A stretch of 64,000 nucleotides of DNA, from positions 1 to 64,000 of the forward strand of contig JAXGJB010000006.1 of NCBI GenBank assembly GCA_040770465.1, read 5' to 3'. Shown piece after piece: positions 935-55,644 of this stretch (position 1 is the first letter of the stretch; each line of letters starts with the position of its first letter). This stretch comes from Methanothrix sp. Lineage in GTDB: Archaea > Halobacteriota > Methanosarcinia > Methanotrichales > Methanotrichaceae. Both the position numbers and the translations under genes were made by a program. The notes under the pieces are model-generated. The model ran no database searches and was not told the origin of the DNA. It saw nothing but the letters and a program-made list of their open reading frames with translations.

Positions 935-2812
935 CTAAAGCCCCAGCCCCTTCCTCTTCTCCTCGATCTTGGCGATCATCAGGCCTGCCGCCTTGAAGGG
1001 GTCGGGCTCCACGGCGAAGGTGGCGCCGACGACGCCTTCAACGTCCTTGGTGAGGACGCTTGTAACCACCGGGCTCCCGAGGACCGGCGGAACCGTCCCC
1101 AGGACGGTGTAGACCCCCGAGGATATGACGTAAGCCCCGATGCTGACGGCTTTCTCGCTCATCCATTCGGGGGCAGCGCCCGCGGCCGGCAAGTCGCTGA
1201 TGTCTACCCCCAGGTGGTTTGCGAGGGCCGCGGCCAGGACGAGGATCCGGCTGATGTCGACGCAGGAGCCCATGTGGAGGACCGGCGGAACGCCCAGTGC
1301 CTCACAGATGGGCCTCAGCCCCGGCCCCGCCTCCTTCGCCGCCTCGGGCTTGAGGAGCCCGGCCTTGGCGCAGGCGATGGCGTTGCACCCGGTGGTGACC
1401 ACCAGAACGTCGTTTTTGATCAGCTCCCGGACCAGGTTGACGTGGCCGAAGTCGTGCTGGATCTTGGGGTTGTTGCAGCCGACGACGGCTCCAACCCCCT
1501 TGACGGCACCCGAGACTATGGCGTCGATGAGGGGCTGGGGTGTCCCGCCAAGAGCTCCCAGAATCGCCTCGGCGCTGAACCCCACCATGCAGGCGCTCTT
1601 CTCTTTTGGTATGTTCACCCTGCCGGAGTCGCGGTTCGGGTAGTTCTCGACGGCGGCCTTCACGATCTCCTTGGCGATCTCCAGAGCCTTCTCCTCGTGG
1701 TACTCCATCCGAACCGTTCCTGGGAAGTCGGCCTTCGGGGACGTGGAGATGAACTTTGTGTGGTAGCAGCTCGCCAGGTTTCCGAGGGCGGGCATGATGC
1801 ACTGAACGTCCACCACCATCGCCTCGACGGCGCCGGTGATGACTGCCAGCTCCTGCTGGAGGAAGTTTCCTGCCGTCGGAACCCCGTGGCGCATGAGAAC
1901 CTCGTTTCCGGTGCAGCACATTCCGGCGACGCTGATCCCCTTCGCGCCCATCTTATTGGCAAGGGCGATCATCTCGGGGTCCTCGGCAGCGGCGACGATC
2001 ATCTCCGAGAGGATCGGCTCGTGGCCGTGGACGATTATGTTAACCTCGTCGGACTTCAGGACACCGAGGTTCGACTCCGACATTACGGGAGTCGGGGTGC
2101 CGAAGAGGACGTCCTGGACGTCGGTTGCGATCATCGAGCCGCCCCAGCCGTCGGAGATGCTCGTTCTGAGGCCGTGGAGGAGTATGTGAACGGGGTCGTT
2201 GTCGACGCCGATGTGAGTTCTGTGCATGCACTCGACGATCTCCCGGTCAACCCCCCTCGGGTCGATCCCGGCGTTCTCCCAGATCTTCTGCCTCTTCTCG
2301 GGAGCTCTCCGGGTGAACGTGATCGGTCCCGTCTGCTTTCCAAACTCCGATAAGAGGACGTTTGCAAGCTCCAACGCCACATCCCCGGGGTTTCGATCTA
2401 GTGTGGAGATGTCAAACTCAGCGGCAAGAGCGTTCAGCTTCGCCTCGTCCTTCACCGCGTAGCTTTTGGCTTTTCCCTCGGCCATCTGCTTGAACGTCAT
2501 GACGGCGTCCCGAGCGTGGTCGGAGTGGGCGGCTGCGCCCGCGGCTATCATCCGGAGGAGATTTCGAGCGACGATGATGTCGGCGGTGGCACCGCAGACT
2601 CCCTTGTCAGGTCCCTCGCCGAAGGGGTCGATCCGGCATGGGCCCATGTTGCAGTTGCGACAGCAGACCCCGAGCTGGCCGAATCCACACTGAGGCTGCT
2701 GCTTTTCGAAACGGTCCCAGGCGGTTTCTATCCCCGCCCGTTCGGCTTCCAAGAGCATCGCCCGGGTGGCGGGATCGACGCTCCTCTCGTTGACGTTCTT
2801 CGCCATTCTCAT
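935..2812 (-). CDS. cooS: Anaerobic Ni-Fe carbon monoxide dehydrogenase catalytic subunit (monofunctional CooS type)
   Basis: QPQCGFGQLGVCCRNCNMGPC, AAAHSDH, HGHEP, GMCCTGNE, VDVQC, GCNN, TTGC, GSCVD, EWMSEKA motifs. Confidence 0.95.
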   Translation of the reverse strand: MRMAKNVNERSVDPATRAMLLEAERAGIETAWDRFEKQQPQCGFGQLGVCCRNCNMGPCRIDPFGEGPDKGVCGATADIIVARNLLRMIAAGAAAHSDHARDAVMTFKQMAEGKAKSYAVKDEAKLNALAAEFDISTLDRNPGDVALELANVLLSEFGKQTGPITFTRRAPEKRQKIWENAGIDPRGVDREIVECMHRTHIGVDNDPVHILLHGLRTSISDGWGGSMIATDVQDVLFGTPTPVMSESNLGVLKSDEVNIIVHGHEPILSEMIVAAAEDPEMIALANKMGAKGISVAGMCCTGNEVLMRHGVPTAGNFLQQELAVITGAVEAMVVDVQCIMPALGNLASCYHTKFISTSPKADFPGTVRMEYHEEKALEIAKEIVKAAVENYPNRDSGRVNIPKEKSACMVGFSAEAILGALGGTPQPLIDAIVSGAVKGVGAVVGCNNPKIQHDFGHVNLVRELIKNDVLVVTTGCNAIACAKAGLLKPEAAKEAGPGLRPICEALGVPPVLHMGSCVDISRILVLAAALANHLGVDISDLPAAGAAPEWMSEKAVSIGAYVISSGVYTVLGTVPPVLGSPVVTSVLTKDVEGVVGATFAVEPDPFKAAGLMIAKIEEKRKGLGL

Positions 2813-3155
2813 GACCTCTCGTGCCTTCTTGAGATTTAAAGTGATATGACAAAAATTTACACGATCACCTATTTAGCTTTTGCCACATTTTTGTTGTTTA
2901 CACAGGCACATATCTTTTAAATGTGATGTAAACTTCGGCGAATGAAAGCGTTTAATGTAACTTTTATGTTATGCTACTTTTCATTTTACGCATCGTTGTC
3001 CATCTTAAATTTGCTGACATTCCGCTGAACAAAAGTTCGCTTCAATGAACGATGCCGTCCGATTATGTCGAGACTGCCGTTCCATCACGTTAATACATCT
3101 TTTGCATCAGCCCTCTCAGCCGGTCATCGATTCGCCTTTCGAAACGACCGAGATC

Positions 3156-3199
3156 CCTGAAGGGGTATCCCAGAAGGCCTTAAGGGATATCCCAAAAGG
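3156..3199. repeat. Tandem pair of 22-bp near-palindromic units, candidate operator
   Basis: CCTGAAGGGGTATCCCAGAAGG followed directly by CCTTAAGGGATATCCCAAAAGG in the cooS/MFS divergent intergenic region. Confidence 0.6.
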
Positions 3200-3783
3200 C
3201 GGATAACGTTTCTTGACCAGATTCAGCCACGTGGCAATAACTTTCCTATACATATTCAATTGAGGCTCTTTTCGACCTCATTACAACGAGGACAAAACCT
3301 TGGACCTAAATATGGGTTCGCCTAGGCGGAATCGATGACGTCAAAACGAATCTTTTTTGGTATATAATAGAAATAATTCTGATGTTTATGAAAAGCCATT
3401 CGGTCATTATTAGAGTATTTCAGTATTTTGCTGTATTCAAAGGGATAAAACTACTAAATATCACAAATAAAATGGGTTATATAGATCAATTAGATGAGTA
3501 TTTTGCATTATTTTAACTTTTTACAGACAGCAATCTATATATAGGGATTACCTCGTTGAAGTATGATGATGAGACTGAGCAAGGCAATCTCGCTCTGTAT
3601 AAACCTGCGCTCTGGCTTATAGTGCACCATTTTAGCGTTCGCTTAGCCCTGCTCAAATCTCCGCATCTGGCCTTCTCTGTCTATTGCGGCTTCCTGGTCG
3701 ATTTGACGGTCATGGCCATCTTGGGCATAGCTCTTTAGTATATTACTGTAAAAATTCGAACATGAAAATAGGAGGTGAAAAAT

Positions 3784-4419
3784 ATGAATCGCACCATAAA
3801 GCTCCTCATGATCTCGGACGTCTTCGTCCTCACGGGCTTCGGCCTGATCCAGCCGATCCTGGCCATCTTCATAAACGAGGGGGTGGCCGGAGGGAACATC
3901 CTCACCGCAGGGGTGGCGAGCACCCTATTTCTGGTGACAAAGTCCCTCGTCCAGCTCCCCTTCTCCCGATACATCGACAACAGCAAAACGAAGACTCGAT
4001 GGCTTATACTGGGAACGGCTCTGATCGCCGCAGTTCCGGTGATGTACATATTCATAGACGACATACGCCAGGTCTACCTGGCGGAGACGCTCTACGGCAT
4101 CGGGAGCGGCCTTGCCTACCCCACCTGGGTCGGGCTCTGGAGCCTGAACCTGAACCCTGGAAGGGAGAGCTTCGAGTGGTCGGTTTATTCCACCTCCACG
4201 GGCCTGGGGACCGCCGCCACCGCGGCCGCCGGAGCCGCCATAGCGAGCTTTGCGGGCTTCACCGCCACCTTCATCCTGACTGGGCTTTTGTGCATATTGG
4301 GGTGCGGCATCCTCCTGATGCTGGATCACGAGAGTGCTGAGAAGAGGAGGAGCGATTCAGTCGTAGTATCGATGGAGAGGAAGAGCAGATCCGGGATCGA
4401 TCGTTTCAGCCTGGACTGA
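3784..4419 (+). CDS. Half-size (about 6 TM) MFS-like membrane protein
   Basis: Hydrophobic helices with MFS-like patterns (GFGLIQPILAIF, YGIGSGLAYPTW); GGAGGTGA RBS upstream. Confidence 0.75.
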   Translation: MNRTIKLLMISDVFVLTGFGLIQPILAIFINEGVAGGNILTAGVASTLFLVTKSLVQLPFSRYIDNSKTKTRWLILGTALIAAVPVMYIFIDDIRQVYLAETLYGIGSGLAYPTWVGLWSLNLNPGRESFEWSVYSTSTGLGTAATAAAGAAIASFAGFTATFILTGLLCILGCGILLMLDHESAEKRRSDSVVVSMERKSRSGIDRFSLD

Positions 4420-4628
4420 CCGGACGGACCTGTGACCGATCACCCTTTCCGCCCATCTCTTCTTCATTCACCTCTTCGTTTTACATCCCCGTCACAAATT
4501 TGTCCTCCGGTCTGTCACCACTTCGTCTCGCATCCTCTCTTTCCGCCTTCTATCTGCCTTTTTCCCATTCCCAGCAACCCCTCATCTTCACGATGAGTAT
4601 TTAGTCCCCGAACCACCATCTCAGTGAC

Positions 4629-5612
4629 ATGCCTGGAGAGCTCTTGGACCGGTTTCGGGGCTGCATGCTCGGCCTTGCCGTCGGCGACGCCCTGGGGATG
4701 CCCGTCGAGGGGCTGACCTGCGACCAGATCCGCGAGGTGCATGGCGAGGTCTGTGAGATGGTCGCCCCGGCCGCCGACCACTTCCACTGCTGCCTCGGAC
4801 CGGGGCAGTACACCGACGATACCGAGCAGACCCTCATTCTTGCGGAGTCGATCATCGAGGCCGGGTTCTTCGACGTCGAGAGGTTCGCCTCGAAGCTCGC
4901 CCTTTGGGGACGGTGCTGGATCCAGGACCCGTCCCTGAATCGGGGCGTCGGATTGACCAGCAAGACCGCGATCCAGGAGCTTTTGAGGGACCGGCCCTGG
5001 CAGGATGTGGGACTACCGACGCCGACCTGCGGCTCTGCAATGAGGACGGCGCCGATAGGCCTCGTCTACCACTGCAGCCTCGATCTCGTCGCCAGGTACG
5101 CCGACCTCCAGAGCCTTCCCACCCATTCGTCGACCGGGGCGAGGGCGGGGTCCGTCGCCGTCGCCGTCGGGGTCGCCCTCTCCCTCCTCGGCTTCTCCAG
5201 AATCAAGGTTCTGGAGATGGCCGCCGCCTTCTCCGAGCGGATCGACCGGGGGTTCGGACGGAAGCTTCTCGTAGTAAAAGAGATGCTCGACCTCGATCCG
5301 CCGGAGGCGCTGGCGGAGATCGGAACGTCGCCGATGGTCTGGGAGACGGTTCCAGCCGCCTTCTATTGCCACCTGAAGTTCGAGCCGGAGGAGGCGCTGA
5401 TCGCTGCCGCCTCCTCGGGCGGGGATACAGACTCCATAGCCTCCATCGCCGGGGCCCTGGCGGGAGCGGCACGGGGCTCAGATTGGATTCCGGATAGGTG
5501 GCTATTGCGGCTTGAAGAGAGGAAGAGGATCGAGGAGGTGGCTACGGACCTCTCCTCAGTCGCATCGAGGATCTGTCCGGGGATGGTGAGCCAACAGACC
5601 AGTCAGCATTAA
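4629..5612 (+). CDS. ADP-ribosylglycohydrolase family protein (DraG/ARH-like)
   Basis: GLAVGDALG, YTDDTEQ, GSAMR, GGDTDSIASIAG motifs. Confidence 0.92.
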   Translation: MPGELLDRFRGCMLGLAVGDALGMPVEGLTCDQIREVHGEVCEMVAPAADHFHCCLGPGQYTDDTEQTLILAESIIEAGFFDVERFASKLALWGRCWIQDPSLNRGVGLTSKTAIQELLRDRPWQDVGLPTPTCGSAMRTAPIGLVYHCSLDLVARYADLQSLPTHSSTGARAGSVAVAVGVALSLLGFSRIKVLEMAAAFSERIDRGFGRKLLVVKEMLDLDPPEALAEIGTSPMVWETVPAAFYCHLKFEPEEALIAAASSGGDTDSIASIAGALAGAARGSDWIPDRWLLRLEERKRIEEVATDLSSVASRICPGMVSQQTSQH

Positions 5613-9261: not shown

Positions 9262-10695
9262 ATGCTTTTGAGAGGAGAGAGGCTCGGCGAGATCTCCGGG
9301 GAGGTGCTGGAGTTCATATCCTCCCGGGAGGCTGACCGATGGATCTATGAGGCGGACCTTCTGGTTGACAGGGCCCACCTGGTGATGCTGAAGGAGCGGG
9401 GGCTCATCGCCCCCGAGGAGTTTAGAGAGATCGTGGCGGGGCTCGACAAAATCGATGAGGATAGCCTGGGAGAGGGGGAAGACGTCCACGAGGCGATCGA
9501 GGCGGAGCTGATAGCGCAGGTCGGAGCCGTCGGGGGCAGGATGCACACCGGACGGTCGAGAAACGATGAGGTGGCCACCTGCATCAGGATCGTCCTCAGA
9601 GACGAGATCCTCGGCCTCATGGCCGAGGTGAACGATCTCTGCAAGGCCCTGGTCAAGAGGGCCGCCGAGAACGCCGAGTCGATTATACCGGGGTTCACCC
9701 ACCTCCAGCACGCCCAGCCGACGACCCTCGCCCACCACCTCCTCGCTCACGCCGACGCCCTCCTCCGGGACGTAGACCGGCTCCGGGACTCCTACTCGCG
9801 GGTCAACCGCTCGCCCCTGGGCGCCGCGGCCTTCGCCTCCACCGGCTTTGATATCGACCGGGCGAGGACGGCAGAGCTTCTCGGATTCGACGGCCTCGTC
9901 GAGAACAGCATGGACGCGGTATCGACGAGAGACTTTCTCCTCGAGGCGTTATCCAATTCAGCCATCCTGATGGCGAACTTGAGCCGCCTGGCAGAGGAGC
10001 TGATCCTCTGGTCGACCTCGGAGTTCGGGTACGTGGAGCTTGACAACCTCTTCACCTCCACCTCCTCCATCATGCCCCAGAAGAAGAACCCGGACACCGC
10101 GGAGCTGGTCCGGGGGAAGTCCGGCTCGGTATTCGGCTCGCTAGTCGCAGCTCTCACGATCTGCAAGGCGCTCCCAATGAGCTACAACCGGGACCTGCAG
10201 GAGGCGACGCCGAACCTCTGGCGCGGGATCTCGACGACCAGGGGCGCAGTCCGGATCATGGCCGGGGCCGTCTCGTCGGCGAAGTTCAGGACCGATCGGC
10301 TGGAGGCTGCCTCCAGCGCCGGCTTCTCGACGGCGACGGAGCTGGCCGACTCCCTAGTCAGAAAGACGAAGATCCCCTTCAGGACCGCCCACCAGATCGT
10401 GGGGGCCCTGGCGGCGAAGGGCGGAACGCCGACGATCCGAGATCTGGACGAGGCTGCCGAGAGGATCGCCGGGTTCAGACCCAGCGAGAGGGGCTTTGCC
10501 GAGAGGGAATTGAAGGCCGCCCTCGACCCAAAGGAGAACGTCGCCGCAAGGTCGAAGATCGGTGGCCCTGCGCCATCGGAGACGAAGAGGATGGTCGCCG
10601 ACCGATTGAAAAGAATCGAGGAGAACGAGCAGCTCGTCGGAGAGATGAGGGGGAAAGTCGACGGGGCCCTCGAATCGTTGCGGGAGATTAGGTGA
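9262..10695 (+). CDS. argH: Argininosuccinate lyase
   Basis: HTGRSRND, PGFTHLQHAQP, SSIMPQKKNPD, YNRDLQE. Confidence 0.97.
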   Translation: MLLRGERLGEISGEVLEFISSREADRWIYEADLLVDRAHLVMLKERGLIAPEEFREIVAGLDKIDEDSLGEGEDVHEAIEAELIAQVGAVGGRMHTGRSRNDEVATCIRIVLRDEILGLMAEVNDLCKALVKRAAENAESIIPGFTHLQHAQPTTLAHHLLAHADALLRDVDRLRDSYSRVNRSPLGAAAFASTGFDIDRARTAELLGFDGLVENSMDAVSTRDFLLEALSNSAILMANLSRLAEELILWSTSEFGYVELDNLFTSTSSIMPQKKNPDTAELVRGKSGSVFGSLVAALTICKALPMSYNRDLQEATPNLWRGISTTRGAVRIMAGAVSSAKFRTDRLEAASSAGFSTATELADSLVRKTKIPFRTAHQIVGALAAKGGTPTIRDLDEAAERIAGFRPSERGFAERELKAALDPKENVAARSKIGGPAPSETKRMVADRLKRIEENEQLVGEMRGKVDGALESLREIR

Positions 10696-10711
10696 CATCC
10701 TGAGAAGAGCG

Positions 10712-11050
10712 ATGGCTTCTGAGGCTGTGATGACGACGGCGCCGGGCGGCACGGCTTTGGAGGCGGGCCGAGCATTGCAGACCGAAAAAGTTGGGCCGAA
10801 GGCCGAACCTGCAAGCTGGAGGCGGCGGCTCGGCTTTCTCCTCGTCATCCTATCCTGTCTTCTTTACGGCTCTCTCATTCTCGTCCCGATGACCCCCTTT
10901 TCCGCCAAAGGGAAGGTTGCCCTCTCGTCTCTGCTCGTCATCTCCGGCGAGGCATCCTTCTGGATCGGCGGCCTCATCCTCGGCCGGGAGGCGATCGCCC
11001 GCTGGCGGGGCGCCCTCGATCCGCGCCGGTGGATTCGAGGTCGGGGATGA
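10712..11050 (+). CDS. Small two-TM membrane protein (transporter-suffix-domain-like)
   Basis: Two hydrophobic helices ending GEASFWIGGLILGRE. Confidence 0.6.
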   Translation: MASEAVMTTAPGGTALEAGRALQTEKVGPKAEPASWRRRLGFLLVILSCLLYGSLILVPMTPFSAKGKVALSSLLVISGEASFWIGGLILGREAIARWRGALDPRRWIRGRG

Positions 11051-11196
11051 GGATCGCCGCACTCTCCGAGGTCCCGGAGGAGTACTGCGAGGTCGTGACC
11101 CCAGCGCCTCCGATCCAGCGCGAGAGTCGCCTCCGTTATACGCGAGATCGGCGGGATCGAGCTGTTCTGGAACGTGAGCCGAGGGGACGGAGATGA
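11047..11196 (+). pseudogene. Short degraded ORF; N-terminus resembles metallophosphoesterase starts
   Basis: ATGA overlap with previous gene; MRIAALSEV start then the ORF ends after 49 aa. Confidence 0.3.
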
Positions 11197-11245
11197 AGAA
11201 AAGCCGCTTACATTGGGACTTGCTCCAAAGTGGCCTCGAAATATG

Positions 11246-11404
11246 AAATGACTGCACAACCCCTTCGTCTCCAACTACACTTGGACACATCGAAGTGTGC
11301 TTGGTTTCGATCAGATATTCGTCCTCTAAAGTACGCTTTGGATCATCCCATATCATAGAAGGATAAATATCGAGTGGCTGCACCATCCATCTCTGGCGGT
11401 CACC
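11246..11404 (-). pseudogene. Degenerate duplicate of internal segment 12501-12659 of the large toxin-like gene
   Basis: MVQPLDIYPSMIWDDPKRTLEDEYLIETKHTSMC vs MVQPLEIYPSMIRDDPKCTLEDEYLIEAKHSSLC; nucleotide similarity visible by eye. Confidence 0.85.
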
Positions 11405-14400
11405 ACTCTCTGTGTACTAGCACCCATTGTTGGTATTGACAGCCCGCTTCATTATCCCATTTTTCCTCTACTAGCTCGACTTCTAGCTGATCGTCGTTCT
11501 CATCACCGTCGCCCTTAAGATACGTCTCATCCCAGTTTTGTTCTATGCTGTCCACGTTTGCAATTCTATAATAACCATCACAGTCACCCAAGCTATCTTT
11601 TAGCTTGAAAAACCACCATCCTTTACTTTTGTGGGATGCGTCACGCGTATCCAGGTCGACTTCCGCTAAAGCATCTTCGTCGCCTTCACCAACGAGCACG
11701 CATTCTTTGTCCTTCTTATCGCCATCGACATTTACAATCACATATTTACCATATAGATGTTCCTCTAACTTCCACAGCTGCTGGTCGTCATCTGATTTAT
11801 AGTCATCTAGATCTACTTCAGAATTATCATCTTCGCTCTCGACTCCCGTCAGATAGCACTCTTTATCATCCTCAACACTCCCCCGGCTCACGATACTTAT
11901 GTGACCCAAATCACTGATCTTCAAAGTCATAAATGAAGATACGTCCCCCAATAACCAGTCGCCTATATACGGCACGCTGCTGTCGAGGAATATCTGCGAT
12001 TTTCCCTTATAATCACTTTCTTCGTATAGTATTATGGCATATCCAGAAGGAAGGTTGCTCCTAAACGAACGTACCTCCTTACCGAAATCGCCAATATTTG
12101 GAGATCTGTCCGTAAATATCCTCCCACTGCCGTCATAGTTAGTATCATTGAATAACACTACGTGGGTACTATATTCGCTCGACTTGACGAGTTTCCATCT
12201 TTGATAATCGTAGCCGAGATAGTCGTATTGTTGGACGTTGGCTCCGCCGTCTTTGCTGCCGCCTGCAACTTCCAGGCACCTATCGCTGTATTTGGAGATG
12301 ATTTTACAGTAACCATCTGCGGCAGGCTCAAATCTCCATACCTGATTCTCACTTCCATCATAATCGCATACTACAACGTCGACTCCATTGCTTGTATTGT
12401 CCCGATCAGAAGTTGCAAGGCACTTGTCGCCGTTAACTATCTTGAAGCAACCGTCCCCAACAGGTTTTAACATCCAGTTCTGGCCACTTTCTCCGAAATA
12501 AAATGACTGCACAACCTCCTCGCCTTCAACTACACTTAGACACAGCGAACTGTGCTTGGCTTCGATCAGATATTCATCCTCTAAAGTGCACTTTGGATCA
12601 TCACGTATCATGGAAGGATAAATCTCGAGCGGCTGCACCATCCATTTCTGGTGGTCACCTTCTGTGTAATTATCCTGGATGACGCTGGCACTATCTTCCA
12701 ATCTCGCCCTCTCAACCGATAGGTAATTTCCACTGTGCCGCGCACCGATCTTGTAGTAGCCGTCCCCAACTGGCTCAAAGTACCATTGTTGATACATTTT
12801 AGGGTAACAATTTTCGTCAAATTCTAATATGCCTGACTGAACGTTTGCTCCTCCGCGCACCATCCCGTGATCAACCTCTAGATAACGGTAGGTGTCGTTG
12901 TTATGAACTATATAATAACCATGTCCGATATGCTCCAGATACCATCTTTGTTTTGGACCAATGCCGCCTTTATATTGATACGCGTTGTAGTCATGATCTT
13001 CATCAGATCCGTCCAAGCACTTCTCACTGTTTTTTACAGTGAATACGTACCAGCCGTCGCTGAACGGTGCTGCGACAGAATCTGGAAGCAGGCCAATTTC
13101 AAGTTGACTGGAGGAGTTATTGAGATTGGTGGCGATGATGGTGGCGTTTTTGTCTCTCCTCATCACCTGGATTACTGAAGTTTCGTATATCGTATCGTTA
13201 TCGTCATCGGTCATGGTCAAGTTTCGATACTCGCCGTTTACCTTCACGTGAGCGATCACGCTCTTAATTCCATATCCATCGGTAACCGATGCATATGCTC
13301 TCGTCATGTCCAAGCTGTAACCGGCCCAGTGGATCTTTGGTTTTTCAGATATTTGCGGTGTCAAGATGAAATGCCATCCTGGCTCCAGTTCAAGCTCCCC
13401 TATACTCCTATTGCTGTCGTTTAGCTCTTTGGCTCGCTTCAAAGCATCTATATCAGAAACACCGAGCACCCACTTCGTGTTATTTTGGTGTGGCACGCTG
13501 TCATCGCTTCCAATGGTCCAATTGATCGCATCACCCAAGGTTACCGAAGAGCCTGCATATACCTTGTATTCTTTGTAGACTCCATCTTCCAGATCGAACA
13601 TGAGAGTTGCGGTCTTCTTATCTATCTCTTCCATATAAGTACTGAAATCCTCTTCTGTGCAAACCCACTCATTTTTCTCCCCGCTCCATTTCTTGACCTT
13701 CGCATCAACTTTAAACGACTCAATGCTGAGAGGTGTTCCACAGTCAATTGATTTCAATTGTTCGAAAGAGGTGGTTATGTCTTCACCTCTGTTGCCGACC
13801 AGACCTTGATCAAGCTCTACGTCTGCGCTCGTCTCCCCTCTATCAAGCGAGGTTATCGAGGTTGGCGAGGTGACGGTTGCAATCACCACTTCCCCAAGCT
13901 TTATGTTGACATTGGGGACTACGTTTTCGGCTGGCGTCATCCCGATATTTTTGACGTTCAACGTGAAGGCGAGCTTTGCAGCCTCGTCCAAGCTGGTGGT
14001 GGTTGCGGTGCTCCAATCTTCCTGGGTAAAACCGGAAGTAGTATTTGAATCAGTTGTAGTGGTCGTCTTCTCCCAAAATCCCATATAATGCAACGTGACC
14101 TTACCACCAGTAATCATCGTAAGGGGACTTAAGCTTGGCGTAAATTCAAAGTTACCCCCCCCCTCCTGATGATTTGTATGGGCAATAGATGTTTCGTGAG
14201 TTATACTCCATCCTGTATTATTTGAGCCGCCCGTGGTGGACGTGATCTCTGCGATGGGCGTAACTCGCGTCTCTTTGAGCACCACCTTAAGACCGGGATA
14301 CGCAGCCACCAGGGGGTGATCTGCTGGCGATATCTCTGGCATGTTCACGTGGAAATATTCCTGGCCATCGCCATAAAGATCGCCGTCGGTGCTGAAGATC

Positions 14401-15635
14401 TTGAAGTCCGTCCCCACCTCGTGCATCTCAGCGGCGTCTGGCAGGCCGTCACCATCTACGTCGTTGTCCCGGTTAATGTCCTCAGACCTGTAAGGGTAGG
14501 TCCTATTTGGATTCTCGGAGTCTATAGATGCGCTGTCGTTAATCTGATCGCCGTTGGTGTCCGGGTCGGTACGGCTGCATAGCCACCACCCTTCTCTGGT
14601 GTCGTTGAGGCCGTCGTCGTCCGAATCATGATCGAGATAGTCGGGAACGCCGTCGCCGTCGGTATCCGCAGGGTTGCTGGGATCAGAGCCTGCCTCGACC
14701 TCATCGGATATGCCGTCGTCGTCTGAATCGAGATCGAGATAGTCGGGAACGCCGTCACCGTCGGTGTCTGCAGGGTTGCTGGGATCGGAGCCTGCCTCGG
14801 CCTCATCGGGAATGCCGTCGTCATCTGAATCCGGATCACAATAATTGAGAAGACCATCACCGTCGGTGTCGTTTGCCAAAAGGGGTCCACTGTCGTTTAG
14901 TCCGTCTATTGGCGTGTTGTCGGTAAAGTTATCGATTTCTCCGTCTCTATCAGCGTCTTCGCCCCCCGCCTCGATCAAATCAGGAATGCCGTCGTCATCT
15001 GAGTCGTGATCCCGACAATCGATATCGCCATCATTGTCTGTGTCGGGCGAGGGCTTGTCAGGGTCTATGTCGTCGCATAATCCATTAGAGTCAGAGTCGA
15101 CAAAGTTATCGATCCTCCCATCGATGGGGTCAACATCTGCATATCCTGCCTCGACAACGTCAGCAATTCCATCGTTATCTGAGTCAAGGTCCAAGACGTC
15201 CTTTACGTTGTCATTATCTGTATCTTGAGTGCTCGTTTGCTCAGCAAGATCTGGAATTCCGTCGTTATCGTCGTCGGCATCTCGGTTATCATTAACACCA
15301 TCACCATCAGTGTCGGTGACCGGAGGTCTGTCTCTCTTATCAGGGCCAATGCTGTCGTTTTCTGTAGGGCCTGCCTCAACAACGTTAGGAATTCCAGCGT
15401 TGTTTGAGTCTAGGTTGCGTAAGCCGTCTCCATCAGTATCTTCGGTAGTGTATTGTTCTAAAAGGTCAGGAGGAAAACTTTCTATAGAAAAATCAATTTC
15501 AAAGTTTGGATTCAAGAAATCAGTATCATTAATATCATAATTTTCAGTGCATAAAGAAGGTTGAATAATACTTAATAATGCCACCAAATACAAACAGCTA
15601 CGGATTATACAACTACCCCTATAGTACTCCATCAA
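11400..15635 (-). CDS. Secreted multidomain protein: signal peptide, TSP3-like Ca-binding repeats, binary toxin B/protective antigen-like domain, ricin-B lectin repeats, beta/gamma-crystallin-like domain
   Basis: Many DxDxDGxxD repeats; DVDGDGLPDAAE...STDGDLYGDGQE...HPLVAAYP followed by a Ser/Thr-rich stretch; QxW ricin motifs (QRWYL, QQWYF, QKWMV, QNWML, QVWRF, QRWKL); crystallin-like VLFNDTNYDG and ILYEESDYKG. Confidence 0.85.
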   Translation of the reverse strand: MMEYYRGSCIIRSCLYLVALLSIIQPSLCTENYDINDTDFLNPNFEIDFSIESFPPDLLEQYTTEDTDGDGLRNLDSNNAGIPNVVEAGPTENDSIGPDKRDRPPVTDTDGDGVNDNRDADDDNDGIPDLAEQTSTQDTDNDNVKDVLDLDSDNDGIADVVEAGYADVDPIDGRIDNFVDSDSNGLCDDIDPDKPSPDTDNDGDIDCRDHDSDDDGIPDLIEAGGEDADRDGEIDNFTDNTPIDGLNDSGPLLANDTDGDGLLNYCDPDSDDDGIPDEAEAGSDPSNPADTDGDGVPDYLDLDSDDDGISDEVEAGSDPSNPADTDGDGVPDYLDHDSDDDGLNDTREGWWLCSRTDPDTNGDQINDSASIDSENPNRTYPYRSEDINRDNDVDGDGLPDAAEMHEVGTDFKIFSTDGDLYGDGQEYFHVNMPEISPADHPLVAAYPGLKVVLKETRVTPIAEITSTTGGSNNTGWSITHETSIAHTNHQEGGGNFEFTPSLSPLTMITGGKVTLHYMGFWEKTTTTTDSNTTSGFTQEDWSTATTTSLDEAAKLAFTLNVKNIGMTPAENVVPNVNIKLGEVVIATVTSPTSITSLDRGETSADVELDQGLVGNRGEDITTSFEQLKSIDCGTPLSIESFKVDAKVKKWSGEKNEWVCTEEDFSTYMEEIDKKTATLMFDLEDGVYKEYKVYAGSSVTLGDAINWTIGSDDSVPHQNNTKWVLGVSDIDALKRAKELNDSNRSIGELELEPGWHFILTPQISEKPKIHWAGYSLDMTRAYASVTDGYGIKSVIAHVKVNGEYRNLTMTDDDNDTIYETSVIQVMRRDKNATIIATNLNNSSSQLEIGLLPDSVAAPFSDGWYVFTVKNSEKCLDGSDEDHDYNAYQYKGGIGPKQRWYLEHIGHGYYIVHNNDTYRYLEVDHGMVRGGANVQSGILEFDENCYPKMYQQWYFEPVGDGYYKIGARHSGNYLSVERARLEDSASVIQDNYTEGDHQKWMVQPLEIYPSMIRDDPKCTLEDEYLIEAKHSSLCLSVVEGEEVVQSFYFGESGQNWMLKPVGDGCFKIVNGDKCLATSDRDNTSNGVDVVVCDYDGSENQVWRFEPAADGYCKIISKYSDRCLEVAGGSKDGGANVQQYDYLGYDYQRWKLVKSSEYSTHVVLFNDTNYDGSGRIFTDRSPNIGDFGKEVRSFRSNLPSGYAIILYEESDYKGKSQIFLDSSVPYIGDWLLGDVSSFMTLKISDLGHISIVSRGSVEDDKECYLTGVESEDDNSEVDLDDYKSDDDQQLWKLEEHLYGKYVIVNVDGDKKDKECVLVGEGDEDALAEVDLDTRDASHKSKGWWFFKLKDSLGDCDGYYRIANVDSIEQNWDETYLKGDGDENDDQLEVELVEEKWDNEAGCQYQQWVLVHREW
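14607..14826 (-). repeat. Two near-identical 102-bp (34-aa) intragenic tandem repeats
   Basis: DDDGIPDEAEAGSDPSNPADTDGDGVPDYLDLDS / DDDGISDEVEAGSDPSNPADTDGDGVPDYLDHDS; boundaries approximate. Confidence 0.8.
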
Positions 15636-15704
15636 GACCCCTTCAATTACCCTAGATCTGGTTCAGATTTTGGGATGATGATGCTATATATTATTTTCGG
15701 TTGA

Positions 15705-16550
15705 TGTCTCCACACTGTCGAAGAGAAAGAAAAATCACACGCTGGAAACTGCAGCAAGACCAGACAGGTCGCGACCTACACCGTCACCATCGAGATCGAC
15801 GGCAACGCTGCCCTGGGACCGCCATACCTGAAACCTCTTCCCCCGGGGGCAATCTTCAGAGAGCCCTCGTCCTTGAGGCCGACGATAGACGACGTTGCGA
15901 CGATAACCCCGAAGCTTGACGTGACCAAATACTACCCGAGCGAGCTGGTGAACAGAGTCAAGGTCTGCGGCCAGTATAACGGAGCAGAATGGATCTGCGC
16001 CTCGAACTTCACGGCTCTTGAGGTGAACTGGCTCAGCTGCTGCACCAACGAGACGGTCTCAGTGACGAAGACTGCTCGACTGGACGGAACGAACGATAGC
16101 CTTGTCTGGTACACCGTCGAGATAAGAAACAACGACAACGTCACCCGGGCGGCGACGGTGACCGATCGGCTCCCGGTGGGGATGGAACTCGTCGAATCGT
16201 CGGTTCCGTTCGCCTCCTATGAAGACGGCGTCGTCGTCTGGAACCTCGTCGAGATCGGGCCGTTCGAGACGGCGACGATCGAGTTCTCCGCCCTCGCCCC
16301 CGGAGACGGCAGGTTCACGAGCACCGTCGAGGTGGACCCGAGGTCCGTCAATGGTCCCGTCGTCCAGCCCGTACGTGCCACCTGCGTCATCGACGTCGGC
16401 GTCGTCGAGGGTGAGTGCGGTGCCGTATCCTGCGGGATATGGCAGCCGCCGAACTGGGACCTGGAGCATTACGGGTACCAGCCGGACGAATTGGCCTGCG
16501 AGCAGACGACATGCACCGGGTGTGACGGGGACTCGTGCACCGCGCCATGA
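15705..16550 (+). pseudogene. 5'-truncated DUF11-type surface protein remnant
   Basis: The frame of the 15873 ORF stays open upstream (QVATYTVTIEIDGNAALGP) to a TGA at 15702, with no start or signal peptide; DUF11 pattern VTKTA...YTVEIRN...VTDRLPVG. Confidence 0.65.
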
Positions 16551-51820: not shown

Positions 51821-53032
51821 TCACTGATCGCCGCCTGGAAGTAGATCCTCAAGAAATCTCCGACCGGCCTCTTCGAGATCGCCATCCAACGAGAATTCCA
51901 AGCTCCGAACCCTTATTTTTCCGATCATCTCATCCAAGTTTATGGGTTTTGGATAGATCAGTATCGCCTCATGGCATCCCTTAGCGGTTGCATAGGTTAC
52001 CACCTGGCTGATGTCGTCGTTTCCCGGATGGTCCGGCGCTTTGTATTTGGTGTCGAGGACGAAGAGCGCCTTCGGTGTGTCTCTTTCGTAGACCACAAGA
52101 TCGATGTTGAATTTGATCCTTCCATCCTGACCGATGACGACTTTCTCTTGAGATTTTACAACAAAATCCGGCAGCTTTTGAGCCTTCAGCTTCAGCCATT
52201 CTGCTACAAAGAGCTCGTAAAGCTTTGCCATATCCACCAGGAAGGGGATCATCGTCCTATCTCCGACCTTATGAGACGGTCCGCTCTGCTCCAAAAAGAA
52301 GCGGCATAGGGCGTGCATCGGCTGATAGTCCTGGTTCAGGCGGTTGTAAAGCCGACCTGCACAATCCTGGGGGTCGCATGGAATAGGAGTTGCCAAGCCC
52401 CGAAGAGACTGATAGGCCCTTCGAACCTGGGGCAAGGATCGCTCGGTGCAGATCCCACTTTGGAGAATTCGCCGCAGCGTCCAGGCTAGGATCTGATTAT
52501 CCTCGACGTCGGAGGTGTGCTCCTCGTAGCGACATTCCGGCAAAACGTCCCAGGGTTTCAGGCAGCTCTTCCGGACGTCGAAGCGACCGCGGACATAGGG
52601 GATTCGATCTTTCTGGGGTTGATAAGATCGAAAGAAGCCCTTGCGCCCCCGGTCGAGGACCCTGAGGGCGAAGAGCTTGGCCAGGGTCTCGTAAAATTCC
52701 TCCAATGAGTCGCATTCGGTTAAGCCCTCAGGAAACTTGAGGCTATTGCTCTTTAGCTGGTAGGCGTACTCCAGCATCCCAAACAAGTTCCTTATCTCCA
52801 CTTTTGGCAGGAGGGCGATCTGAAACTCTGGGGTCAGGGGTATGTGACCCGCCCAGCCGTTTGCAGTCAGAGACCACTGGTTGCCGTTCTTGAAGGATGG
52901 CTCATCTATCGAGATCTGGCTCCCATAGCTCTGCCATATCTTCATGCCAAGCTCTTCGGAGATCTCGGATCTGGGAAACCTTCGAGTCTCGTACTCCACA
53001 AGCTCGATCCGCTGAATTTCCCTGGAGTTCAT
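51821..53032 (-). CDS. mcrC: McrC family restriction nuclease subunit
   Basis: LFGMLEYAY, VDMAKLYELFV, IDLVV...LDTKYK (PD-D/ExK), DISQVVTY. Confidence 0.92.
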   Translation of the reverse strand: MNSREIQRIELVEYETRRFPRSEISEELGMKIWQSYGSQISIDEPSFKNGNQWSLTANGWAGHIPLTPEFQIALLPKVEIRNLFGMLEYAYQLKSNSLKFPEGLTECDSLEEFYETLAKLFALRVLDRGRKGFFRSYQPQKDRIPYVRGRFDVRKSCLKPWDVLPECRYEEHTSDVEDNQILAWTLRRILQSGICTERSLPQVRRAYQSLRGLATPIPCDPQDCAGRLYNRLNQDYQPMHALCRFFLEQSGPSHKVGDRTMIPFLVDMAKLYELFVAEWLKLKAQKLPDFVVKSQEKVVIGQDGRIKFNIDLVVYERDTPKALFVLDTKYKAPDHPGNDDISQVVTYATAKGCHEAILIYPKPINLDEMIGKIRVRSLEFSLDGDLEEAGRRFLEDLLPGGDQ

Positions 53033-55644
53033 GGCATGATCTCTCTTTTGACCTCATCCCAACGGAAGTCATCGACCTTCTCAGGCCGGTCGAAGAAGTA
53101 CTCGTCCAGGTAGGGCTCGATCTCCATCTTCCAGACGTCCTCTATCTCCTCGGCGAGGTCTTCCCGGAGGAAGAAGGATATCCCTACCTCGAAGTGGCTG
53201 TCGTTTATCTGGGTGTTCAGTCGGCGCAAAACCCCGATCAGCCCCTCGACGGCAAAGCCAGTATCGCGATTTTGGTGATACGAGCGAAGAACATCGTGAT
53301 TCGGCTGGAGCCGCAGGAAGGCGAAGCGCCGCCTGAGGGCGTGATCCACCAGGGCGATGGAGCGGTCTGCGGTGTTCATCGTCCCGATGATGAGGACGTT
53401 ATCGGGTATCCGGAGATACCCGCCACCAGCCAGGGGGATCGAACGATCGCGATATTCGAGGAGGTACATCAGTTCCCCGAAGACCTGGGATAGGTTCGCC
53501 CGGTTGATCTCGTCGATGATCAGAACGCAGGTTCCGCTGCGAGAGTCTGCCCGCTCGCAGAATTCGAGGAATCGTCCCGGAACGAGGGGGTACCTCAGCC
53601 CGCCGTCGTCGTCCGATTGCGGCCTTATCCCCTGGATGAAGTCCTCGTAGGCGTAGGCGGGATGGAACTGGACCAGGTCGGCGAAGCCATCTCCACCGCC
53701 GATCAGGTGTTTTGCCAGATGTTCGGCGACGTACGTCTTCCCGGTCCCCGGCGGGCCGTATAGGACGGCCTGGCCCTTCCGCTTGATGGCGCGAACCCAG
53801 CGCTCTAAGGTTTCGAGATCGAAGCCGGTATCTTCGGCGCAATCGGACAGTGGATACTCTCCGTTTTCTTGGAACTCAGGGGACATTGCCGATCCTAAGA
53901 AATCGGGCCAATCGGTATCAGGCTGTGATCGTCGGATAATATCAAGCCCCTCAGAATTTAGCCGAAATAAATATCCCTGTTTTACGCCACCGTTGTTGTT
54001 TAGAGGGCCTTGATTTATATCGAGTTTCGAAAGCGATTGTGAGAATTTGTCCAATGCGATGGGAGGCTTTAGCTCATGATAATCGACTCGAACAAGATTA
54101 CCTTCTTGGGACCAATTTCTTCCGTTCATGGCGTGCGGATCTTTGGTCTTTTTTGCAGGCTCAATAACTCGGCTTACATAACGTAAGTAGCCGTTGGCGT
54201 AATGAATGATAGTATCATCATTGCCTACATCTGACAAGTTGTCCCAGTGATAAATAGAACGTCCCGTTTTGGACTTTATCGGCGCCCAGATATAGCCGCC
54301 ATTTAATTCTACATCGAGCGTTGATCCCTGGTTGACCCACCAAATGTTCTTTGCCACAATTCCGGCGCCAAATGAGCCCGCAAGCAGTTCTTCACGTCTT
54401 TTCGTATCAAATGCTGCGTGTGCAAATCGTTCTTGATATTTATTCCGCCAAGGCGATCTTTTCCAATCTTTGAACTTGTTTGCAATATGATTTAGAGCCT
54501 CTTCGTAGGCGTTAAAGATCTCGTCTCCAGAGGACATGGCCATTTCAATCGGTATCTTGTAGTTTCTTATGTCGGGGTCATCCTCATCTTGAGCAAAAAC
54601 GAATGATACAAAACTTTCGTCCAAAATATTTTGATTTGATGAAAGTGTTATAGTAACGCTATCTGAAGCGTGATCTTTTGAGCCATCGAATCCCAATACC
54701 AACCAAGGGCCAAAACTCAGATGGAGAGTTCTCCCACCGGATCTTATCGGTATTGTGATCGAAAAACGCTCATCATCGAGACTATTGACGCCTAGACGCT
54801 CAAGGGTCATCTTCAGCAAATCAAAAGCCCATCCGGCCTCCAGCTTGTTCCTGAAGATCTTTTCACATATTTTAGCAAATGGTTCAGAGAGCTCTTTTGG
54901 GTCTAGGTCCAGGAAGTTTTGGATATCATCGGAAGCTTCCCTTTTGAGATCATATCTCTTGATTGCCACCAACCAGTGAGTGAACATATCGAAGAGATCA
55001 TCTGATCTAATTCCTGAAATCCCAAAATCGCCAATGTCGTCTGAGATGTCGTTTACCAGTGAACGTGCCATCTCATTGATTGAGGGGTAATCTGCCAAAC
55101 TTGACGAATAGGACGTGCCGGAGAAGTAGTTGACAGCTCGCCTCGATTTGTTGTTTATCAAGATGAAATCATCCGGCCTGAGTGCATGGAGGATCGGCGT
55201 CAAGGTACCGGCTTGAAAACCTTTGGAGTAAGGTGAATCTGAAAACTCGTCACATGCGATCTTTAACTCTTCTGGATGATCATTGCAACGGCGAACAAAA
55301 CGCAAAATCGAGTTCGCTACTTTGGGCCAATCTTCCGGTTTTGTCCATCCTGCAGCTTCGAACCTCTTCTTCACATCGACTTTAAAAACCGAAGCGATGG
55401 AGATCCAATAATTCATTTCTCGATTGGCTTTGGTATCTTCATAGGGAAGCAACTTTATCAAGACTTTTTCGGTTACATCCTCGCCTCGCCCTTCAGCCTG
55501 GAGGATAGCCTCAAAATTCTTCTTGCCCTCTTCCCTCTCTTCTTCGTAATGCCCAAGATGAGACTGACCTTTAGACGTGAGAGGATAGCTATGTGCAAAT
55601 TCACGAAAAAGCTCGATAAACTCGGCCCTCTTCTCCGCCAGCAA
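53029..55644 (-). CDS. mcrB: McrB family AAA+ GTPase with multi-domain N-terminus including an EVE-like domain
   Basis: GPPGTGKT, VQFHPAYAYEDF, IIDEINRAN, GTMNTADRS, LRRRF; upstream IWWVNQG...GGYIWAP. Confidence 0.92.
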   Translation of the reverse strand: MLAEKRAEFIELFREFAHSYPLTSKGQSHLGHYEEEREEGKKNFEAILQAEGRGEDVTEKVLIKLLPYEDTKANREMNYWISIASVFKVDVKKRFEAAGWTKPEDWPKVANSILRFVRRCNDHPEELKIACDEFSDSPYSKGFQAGTLTPILHALRPDDFILINNKSRRAVNYFSGTSYSSSLADYPSINEMARSLVNDISDDIGDFGISGIRSDDLFDMFTHWLVAIKRYDLKREASDDIQNFLDLDPKELSEPFAKICEKIFRNKLEAGWAFDLLKMTLERLGVNSLDDERFSITIPIRSGGRTLHLSFGPWLVLGFDGSKDHASDSVTITLSSNQNILDESFVSFVFAQDEDDPDIRNYKIPIEMAMSSGDEIFNAYEEALNHIANKFKDWKRSPWRNKYQERFAHAAFDTKRREELLAGSFGAGIVAKNIWWVNQGSTLDVELNGGYIWAPIKSKTGRSIYHWDNLSDVGNDDTIIHYANGYLRYVSRVIEPAKKTKDPHAMNGRNWSQEGNLVRVDYHELKPPIALDKFSQSLSKLDINQGPLNNNGGVKQGYLFRLNSEGLDIIRRSQPDTDWPDFLGSAMSPEFQENGEYPLSDCAEDTGFDLETLERWVRAIKRKGQAVLYGPPGTGKTYVAEHLAKHLIGGGDGFADLVQFHPAYAYEDFIQGIRPQSDDDGGLRYPLVPGRFLEFCERADSRSGTCVLIIDEINRANLSQVFGELMYLLEYRDRSIPLAGGGYLRIPDNVLIIGTMNTADRSIALVDHALRRRFAFLRLQPNHDVLRSYHQNRDTGFAVEGLIGVLRRLNTQINDSHFEVGISFFLREDLAEEIEDVWKMEIEPYLDEYFFDRPEKVDDFRWDEVKREIMP

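Follow-up and report, generated by a model that had tools for sequence, protein, structure and literature searches.

Textbooks list pore-forming proteins of the type of anthrax protective antigen (PA) among the virulence factors of Gram-positive bacteria. In the clostridial B components and in Vip1 of Bacillus thuringiensis, the ADP-ribosyltransferase A-components are encoded next door and a phenylalanine clamp (phi-clamp) is present; domain 1' is the part that docks A-components in PA, Ib and CDTb. To our knowledge, archaea are commonly held to make no classic protein exotoxins. A somewhat different member of this group is Vpb4 (Vip4) of B. thuringiensis: according to the available part of PMC8687597, Vpb4Da2 is PA-like and depends on its C-terminal domains of carbohydrate-binding type, has no clamp Phe and does not recruit an enzyme. 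Here, a gene for a PA-like protein is described from a stretch of 64,000 nucleotides (nt) of Methanothrix sp. (assembly GCA_040770465.1, contig JAXGJB010000006.1, positions 1 to 64,000), called the window in the following. The gene had been picked out earlier by a reading of the DNA without database searches (the sequence-only reading), which took the host to be a methanogen; the genome does carry mcrA. The host lineage is an abundant archaeon of digesters and sediments. The genome assembly has 2.54 Mb in 66 contigs, is 94.85% complete, and contains one copy of the PA-like core.

Residues ~390–760 of the window protein are homologous to domains 1', 2 and 3 of anthrax PA and of the clostridial and Bacillus binary-toxin B components, since sequence search, family profile and predicted fold agree on this point. 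A phmmer comparison of amino acids (aa) 376–802 with all PDB chains returned 29 sequences, 27 of which are PA, PA63, iota Ib, C2-II or CDTb, with E values from 8e-7 to 2.6e-5 and alignments over PA 226–497. Among 1.84 billion representative proteins there are at least 314 relatives at E<=1e-3 (a lower bound, as these are representatives at 50% clustering), with 186 at E<=1e-10 and 29 at E<=1e-30, and some of them, such as P0021 at 8.5e-29, carry precomputed PF03495 and PF17475 domains. A profile built from 60 sequences matches Ib at 3e-68, PA at 1e-66, CDTb at 4e-64, C2-II at 5e-61, two Vip4 chains at 1e-52 and 5e-50 and Vip1 at 5e-48, the weakest matches being at 5e-45; this profile takes in distant members bearing Pfam Binary_toxB, and its values show a chain of homology and not the window protein's own score. 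The matches span PA 164–593, which corresponds to domains 1', 2 and 3. The AlphaFold2 model of aa 376–860 has a mean predicted local distance difference test (pLDDT) score of 85.3 and a predicted template modelling (pTM) score of 0.81, with the insertion loop as the sole low-confidence stretch. In a Foldseek search of this single-chain core model against the PDB, all the top matches listed are PA, CDTb, Ib or Vip1, with E values of 2e-23 to 1e-18 and template modelling scores for the query (TMq) of 0.46–0.56. The resemblance to PA is far above chance, and its fold and core motifs place the protein in the PA/binary-toxin-B superfamily, InterPro Bacterial_exotoxin_B. The sequence-only reading had recognised the order of PA domains 1'-2-3 in the middle part of the protein and had named the lack of any profile or structural match to PA domain 2 as the outcome that would speak against it; both kinds of match were found, and phmmer, the profile and the model with its Foldseek matches all uphold the order. 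The bounds it gave for the core (13600–14470) are right at the start; the end lies further on, at about aa 760, so that the core covers ~13350–14468.

Several functional elements of PA can be followed through this core (Table 1). In the domain 1'-like module, DVDGDGLPDAAE (aa 392–403; 14427–14462) is aligned by phmmer to DRDNDGIPDSLE of PA, the pattern DxDxDGxPDxxE with a second acidic loop is present, and the calcium ligands stand at the PA spacing. D392, D394, D396, L398, E403 and D423 are invariant in 24/24 members of the close protein family, which are 35–73% identical. The stretch from HPLVAAYP (aa 440–447; 14295–14318) to SGF.Q.DWST aligns to the PA 2beta2-2beta3 hairpin at almost equal length. 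Threonine and serine make up 34% of the hairpin, and its alternating hydrophobic tip ends in ITGG, as compared to DIGG in PA. The sequence of the tip differs among family members; length and character are kept. The other motifs named by the sequence-only reading are STDGDLYGDGQE (aa 415–426), AKLAFTLNVKNIGMTPAENVVP (aa 553–574), DQGLVGNR (aa 609–616) and ITTSFEQL (aa 620–627), and all six were found where it had placed them. It was also correct in observing that the clamp region, DQGLVGNR, holds no Phe: Asn615 stands at the position of PA Phe427. For the window protein itself the absence of the clamp is firm, as judged from this alignment. Across the wider family it should be taken as approximate: none of 60 aligned relatives has Phe at the clamp column, with the loop variable or deleted, and when 157 relatives covering the region were aligned with hmmalign, the column was aromatic in three (one F, one Y, one W). 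The region of domain 3, the oligomerisation domain of the superfamily, is confidently modelled, and the beta-sandwich that follows, between domain 3 and the first lectin trefoil, stands at the position of PA domain 4.

Table 1. Features of the PA-like gene and its surroundings in the window (all on the reverse strand)
Feature	Residues	Position	Strand	Basis or remark
Whole open reading frame		11400..15635	-	intact, 1411 codons from TTG
TATA-like AT-rich box AAAATAATATATAG		15684..15697	-	49–62 nt upstream of ATG, read directly
Signal-peptide-like hydrophobic segment	1–29	15549..15635	-	sole 19-mer with mean hydropathy >1.6
Asp-rich region with 14 DxDxDGxxD thrombospondin-type-3-like calcium motifs	60–350	14586..15458	-	motif count
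Family-conserved linker WWLC...TYPY ahead of domain 1'		14469..14585	-	consensus of close-family alignment
PA domain 1'-like calcium-binding module, ending in HPLVAAYP	390–447	14295..14468	-	alignments to PA63 and Ib
PA domain 2-like pore-forming domain	448–675	13611..14294	-	phmmer, profile, AlphaFold2, Foldseek
Ser/Thr-rich membrane-insertion hairpin with alternating hydrophobic tip GNFEFTPSLSPLTMITGGKVTLHYMGFWEK	476–540	14016..14210	-	aligns to PA 2beta2-2beta3 loop
Loop equivalent to PA phi-clamp loop	606–620	13776..13820	-	Asn615 at Phe427 position (phmmer alignment)
PA domain 3-like domain	676–762	13350..13610	-	profile match to PA 593 and Ib 401; 4/24 members match Binary_toxB_3
Eight-stranded beta-sandwich	763–846	13098..13349	-	confident strands, model residues 380–471
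Two ricin-type beta-trefoil lectin domains, six QxW	858–1000, 1015–1150	12186..13064	-	Pfam, model, Foldseek
Beta/gamma-crystallin-like or I36 inhibitor-like module	1155–1240	11916..12173	-	weak Pfam; model pLDDT 73–86
Third, divergent trefoil-like region, three QxW	1250–1411	11403..11888	-	RicinB_lectin_2 1.3e-7 on C-terminal piece
Truncated duplicate of internal segment (copy of 12498–12659, trefoil-1/trefoil-2 junction)		11243..11404	-	162-nt direct repeat, 88% identity

The core is flanked on both sides by modules of a different nature. The Asp-rich region ahead of it consists of 27.5% Asp and is in part made of 102-nt tandem units. Its match to Pfam TSP3_bac (PF18884) has an E value of 0.011 and 16 bits, against a cut-off of 25, and NCBIfam throspo3_MtsC is matched at 0.0037; among the family members, TSP3_bac is matched by 6/24. 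The proposal in the sequence-only reading that thrombospondin-type-3 (TSP3)-like repeats stand where PA14 would be agrees with the 14 motifs and with the lack of a PA14 match, and the TSP3 score falls short of the Pfam threshold. In Pfam and NCBIfam scans of the whole protein, ricin-type lectin domains are the sole domains above threshold. They reach 1.5e-46 (157 bits) for PF14200 and 5.6e-20 (72 bits) for PF00652, the trefoil pair is modelled at a pLDDT of about 90, and a Foldseek search with the C-terminal model finds MTX holotoxin (2vse), HA33, the ricin and mistletoe B chains and CEL-III at E 6e-17 to 1e-10. The ricin-B repeats that had been read from the letters are thus borne out, and from the modelled fold the trefoils probably bind sugar. 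The crystallin-like domain is a less clear case: the module is modelled at intermediate pLDDT, Pfam Crystall (PF00030), the model of the Greek-key domain, gives a weak match (E 0.0044, 17.5 bits against a cut-off of 25), and a match to Inhibitor_I36 competes with it (E 0.0064, also below threshold); at E<=1e-3, each of the two models is matched by 6/24 family members. The third trefoil-like region has QxW motifs at 1286, 1366 and 1402 and an unconfident model (pLDDT about 30). Together this makes nine QxW motifs in three trefoil-like units, the last one poorly supported. The lectins had also been proposed to replace the receptor-binding domain of PA; trefoils are indeed found at the C-terminus, with a domain-4-like beta-sandwich still preceding them.

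The C-terminal end is not constant in the family. Among the 24 members, ricin-type domains occur there in 18, crystallin/I36 in 6, PLAT in 3, FG-GAP in 2 and an S-layer domain in 1. As examples, P0016–P0018 and P0013/P0025 have C-terminal PLAT/LH2 lipid-binding domains or FG-GAP repeats, and the 649-aa protein P0028 has the archaeal S-layer domain PF07752 (5e-33) instead of lectins. A distant relative of 1443 aa from Clostridiales, P0037, is named 'metallophosphoesterase' and has the PA-like core at its N-terminus. A bacterial cell-wall target was considered from a PSA_CBD match in one homologue and rejected, as the match is weak and, at 27 residues, too short.

The gene has been acquired horizontally as an accessory cassette and stands out as a low-GC3 island within a slot that varies. 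Its GC content is 0.475 and that of its third codon positions (GC3) is 0.51, compared to 0.574 for the genome and a GC3 of 0.80–0.85 in the neighbouring genes; only 3.4% of 4.2-kb windows of the genome are as GC-poor. Five genomes of the same genus align over 9300–11052 at 79–84% identity and have nothing that corresponds to ~11053–15717. In two of these five the slot after argH holds other accessory genes (L040 of genome G023 and L041 of genome G021): one has an unknown 506-aa protein, a ParA-like ATPase and a HEPN protein, the other a pentapeptide-repeat protein. The core is rare in the organism's own taxonomic family, being present in 3/105 genomes including this one, and one of these three is a weak partial match within the same genus. 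It is found in 8/401 sampled genomes of the phylum, again including this one; the other seven all belong to a single second family (f13; 7/54), in which it is commoner. Records of homologues include a Methanosaeta metagenome-assembled genome (L004, with an FG-GAP C-terminus), a contig of Methanophagaceae (the ANME-1 archaea; L003) and an ANME-1 UniRef protein (P0004).

In a tree of 40 rows, the close protein family forms one clade (support 100/99). The window protein is sister to a 74%-identical metagenome protein, and together with a Methanosaeta-titled protein it lies within a 14-row clade (98/97). The ANME-1-named protein and rows from the second family are more basal, and rows from the second family are also found in a distant clade; that this distant clade is labelled 'bacterial' rests on two named proteins, P0022 from Bacteroidota and P0037 from Clostridiales, the taxonomy being otherwise largely unnamed. 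PA-like genes of the second family occur in G489 (L021, L028), G219, G344, G373 and G455, some in the close and some in the distant clade, and G489 and G219 have two matches each, the G219 pair adjoining on one contig. Since the members fall in both clades and two of the genomes have two matches, this family holds several divergent PA-like proteins. Repeated exchange of genes for envelope proteins between Methanotrichales and ANME-1 is described in the available text of PMC11576556, which makes a transfer of such genes plausible. A common envelope type (sheaths) was considered as the link between the lineages that have the family; the available text of PMC11576556 mentions no such protein, and the explanation was dropped.

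The stop codon is immediately followed by a shortened copy of an internal segment of the gene, which marks the downstream border of the low-GC island (a GC step at ~11240). Compared with the gene, the duplicate gives 74.6% over 59 aa in tblastn and 76% over 49 aa in BLASTP. An open reading frame (ORF) of 178 codons just downstream starts with it, its first 49 residues being a 76% copy of aa 999–1047; this ORF is no gene partner. The copied segment contains the junction peptide QKW..QP..YP, which is conserved in the family, and for this reason the repeat is probably a recombination scar. It looks like the trace of an event that swapped or displaced the C-terminal targeting cassette. The swapping of C-terminal modules and the scar at their junction therefore support a toxin-like arms-race pattern. 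They give no pointer to one target.

The gene is maintained: its ORF is intact, and it is present in DNA runs and RNA libraries. Ten studies have runs that contain at least half of the gene's sampled words, with the reservation that one of them may be the source sample and that runs of one year and habitat may be one campaign. In one DNA run, a contig of 4533 nt extends across argH, the scar and the gene with 1 difference; in a run from a different study, a variant with 26 differences is found in a contig of 1763 nt. In two metatranscriptome libraries of one study, contigs of 200–515 nt match inside the gene at >=99%; much of the gene and of the intergenic stretch upstream is not covered by them, and they carry no strand or transcript-end information.

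Of the described systems, Vpb4 is probably the best working model for the window protein. Both have PA-like domains 1–3 with a long pore-forming loop (as in Vpb4Da2, PDB 7mjr), and, as far as the available part of PMC8687597 describes it, Vpb4 shares the lack of the clamp Phe and of an enzymatic partner as well as the extra C-terminal domains of carbohydrate-binding type. The differences are that Vpb4 keeps an N-terminal PA14 where the window protein has its TSP3-like motifs, that the C-terminal modules of Vpb4 are not ricin trefoils, and that Vpb4 comes from a Firmicute with a target in the insect gut, whereas the producer here is an mcrA-bearing archaeon. With anthrax PA (PA83/PA63) the protein has in common the calcium pattern of domain 1', HPLVAAYP, the insertion hairpin, the NxGTAP strand and domain 3. 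It differs in that the aligned identity is 13–14% in the Foldseek rows for PA chains, Asn replaces Phe427, there is no PA14/PA20 pro-domain or recognisable furin-type site, no partner of the LF/EF type was found, and lectin trefoils are appended after the domain-4-like sandwich. Iota Ib, Clostridioides difficile CDTb, C2-II and Vip1 share the same three-domain core, and CDTb and Ib also have additional C-terminal receptor-binding domains; the clostridial B components have adjacent ADP-ribosyltransferase A-components and a phi-clamp, and neither is found at the window gene. In the case of MTX holotoxin from Lysinibacillus, botulinum HA33, ricin B and the hemolytic lectin CEL-III, the likeness is confined to the tandem ricin-type trefoil targeting module. 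CEL-III resembles the window protein further in having its trefoil lectins joined to a beta-pore-forming domain, but the pore-forming or enzymatic parts of these lectin-armed toxins are unrelated to the PA fold. The classical features of binary toxins, namely the clamp Phe, the PA14 pro-domain and the A partner, are absent from the window protein, and the Pfam thresholds are also missed.

On balance, the most likely function is that of a stand-alone cytolytic pore of the PA/binary-toxin-B superfamily that is lectin-targeted and binds calcium. That it would act alone is suggested by the absent clamp, the lack of a partner and the precedent of Vpb4Da2. The protein would be exported by means of its hydrophobic N-terminus, and the tandem trefoils, perhaps together with the crystallin-like module, would then bind a glycan on a foreign cell, a step for which the fold is modelled. 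The TSP3-like region would have to be removed or displaced, and the core would, by homology, assemble through domains 1'-3 into a ring-shaped prepore; the linker WWLC...TYPY is a candidate site for proteolytic activation. The Ser/Thr-rich hairpins of domain 2, conserved as they are, may then extend and together form a membrane-spanning beta-barrel. The damage would probably be done by the pore itself, through leakage of ions and solutes, and not by protein delivery, because the lumen would be without the phi-clamp Phe and no gene for a partner enzyme was found. Candidate targets are anaerobic protist grazers, or neighbouring bacteria or archaea.

A number of observations weigh against this proposal. 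The sequence-only reading had suggested comparing the core with the Pfam Binary_toxB models, and here the outcome is negative: Binary_toxB, Binary_toxB_2 and Binary_toxB_3 (PF03495, PF17475, PF17476) do not match the whole protein or the core alone, even at E<=10, and therefore the homology rests on the PDB sequence, profile and fold searches. Among the 24 family members the counts are low as well, with PF03495 in 8, PF17475 in 2 and PF17476 in 4 at E<=1e-3. Pfam finds no PA14 in the window protein, which has the TSP3-like repeats in its place, and no activation site is recognisable in it, the furin type included. Some Phe occurs somewhere in the 15-residue clamp loop of 44/157 relatives, where the loop is difficult to align. 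A partner of an unrecognised family encoded elsewhere is conceivable, and a search of the genomes with PF07737 (ATLF) gives no information either way, since the control matched no genome. The S-layer domain of one family member would also fit a role at the cell surface. The contigs from RNA libraries are a hint of transcription, for which contaminating DNA is a possible source. The proposal of a stand-alone, glycan-targeted pore former goes back to the sequence-only reading; the PA homology, the ricin lectins and the absence of a clamp and of an adjacent partner speak for it, and oligomerisation, pore formation, toxicity, solitary action and target are inferences.

It is improbable that the protein is the B component of a true binary toxin whose enzymatic partner, of an unrecognised family, is encoded elsewhere. 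Such a role would fit with domains 1'-3, the conserved translocase core of all known binary toxins, and with the presence of domain 1' and its calcium site; in a draft genome of this completeness and number of contigs, and with an uninformative ATLF search, a partner could also be missed. However, the clamp position has no Phe, and family members vary in the loop or have it deleted; in the available part of PMC8687597, the clamp Phe is given as present in all B components reported until then, and its replacement as abolishing translocation in PA and C2-II. No known A-component gene is found among the gene's neighbours, as the sequence-only reading had noted: argC, argJ and argH lie upstream on the other strand, and a DUF11 protein, an HhH-GPD glycosylase and an LPG-synthase-like membrane protein lie beyond the gene. 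The survey of archaeal homologues and their neighbours that it had called for points the same way. In an all-vs-all comparison of ORFs across 12 homologous loci, no neighbour is conserved, save in the near-identical L014/L015. Scans of homologous loci with three peptide patterns from the close-family alignment (a partial survey of 5 and 11 loci) likewise show no A-component in the six homologous contexts scanned; the neighbours in L004, L013, L014, L015, L017 and L003 have housekeeping or otherwise unrelated roles (purL/Q/S, Hef, CDC48, MetRS, an ABC ATPase and NosD-like proteins). The ADP-ribosyltransferase domain PF03496 has no match in the organism's own genome at its 94.85% completeness.

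A stand-alone pore must also be set against a non-lytic extracellular or surface protein, such as an adhesin, a matrix protein or a protein for cell-cell contact (e.g. with syntrophic partners), in which the core would be a calcium-stabilised scaffold. TSP3-like repeats, lectins, FG-GAP and the S-layer domain are all frequent in adhesins and envelope proteins, one homologue is named by NCBI only as 'FG-GAP repeat protein', and the lineages that have the family are reported, in the available text of PMC11576556, to have elaborate, horizontally exchanged envelope proteins. Yet the length of the hairpin, its Ser/Thr richness and its amphipathic tip are kept at 35–73% identity, which is hard to explain for a spacer, the protein is without a membrane or cell-wall anchor, and a patchy, horizontally acquired pattern with swapping of the target end is typical of toxins. 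We therefore regard a surface role as unlikely. A decaying or silent acquired gene with no present function would account for the foreign codon usage, the truncated duplicate that adjoins it and the homologue in L003 that is split into two ORFs. This is very improbable, as the 4.2-kb frame is fully open, two DNA runs from separate studies have contigs that carry it with few differences, runs of 10 studies (one perhaps the source) contain at least half of its sampled words, and two RNA libraries match.

A full-text literature search (main texts of a limited collection) found no description of PA-like proteins in archaea, and the homologues are named 'uncharacterized', 'hypothetical' or 'FG-GAP repeat protein' in the databases. 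The window protein would be a classic bacterial exotoxin scaffold in archaea, from a large environmental family of which few among the 157 members examined are aromatic at the clamp position, and suggests that archaea, too, make pore-forming toxins. A wider proposal can be made tentatively, and may well turn out not to hold: that methane-cycling archaea, in this lineage and more often in the second family, whose PA-like proteins cluster with ANME-1-named proteins, have a varied set of PA-type beta-barrel pore toxins, exchanged horizontally and with swappable targeting ends (ricin, PLAT, FG-GAP, S-layer), directed against protist grazers or neighbouring microbes. With them, a classic bacterial exotoxin family would have its first archaeal members, and the known binary toxins would be a specialised, clamp-bearing offshoot of a larger stand-alone family. 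If this is true, the PA fold, now seen as a device that a few pathogens use for delivery, would instead be a widespread modular cytolysin that acts alone. A further question would then be how methane-cycling archaea fend off grazers or compete, with a bearing on the stability of methanogenic communities, and a PA-type protein with lectin modules is directly amenable to testing.

As to the gene itself, the 1411-aa secreted protein of the sequence-only reading corresponds to the open frame of 1411 codons from TTG; the likely start is the ATG at 15632, directly after the TTG, which gives 1410 aa, and the protein database entry P0002 is this 1410-aa form at 100% identity. The TATA-like box, a putative promoter, lies in a leader of 33% GC (GC 0.33 at 15400–15699). 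The hydrophobic stretch of the protein is N-terminal only (aa 6–28), and a hydropathy scan shows no C-terminal membrane or cell-wall anchor, which fits a soluble secreted protein with a signal that is presumably cleaved.

Some of the homologous loci are unusual in other ways. In L003 (Candidatus Methanophagaceae), the homologue at 1951–5515 is split into two overlapping ORFs of 672 and 532 aa, by a frameshift or an assembly error. Giant ORFs are found in L005 (7779–15170, 2463 aa), L006 (7119–16378, 3086 aa, running off the end of the locus) and L007 (1679–5875, 1398 aa), on contigs titled Thermoplasmatales, Chloroflexota and 'archaeon'; their likeness to the query is confined to the N-terminal portion of the core, where the calcium site and the HPLVAAY-type motif lie, at 30–46% over 60–250 residues. 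In the window, the divergent neighbour at 15873–16550 on the forward strand is a Cys-rich DUF11-domain protein of a multi-copy family, with several matching places at 67–77% in each of the five same-genus genomes. Low GC (0.455 at 54–56 kb) is seen in a second stretch as well, which encodes, at 51821–55644 on the reverse strand, a restriction pair of the McrBC type: an 871-aa AAA_5 ATPase and a 403-aa McrC-like protein.

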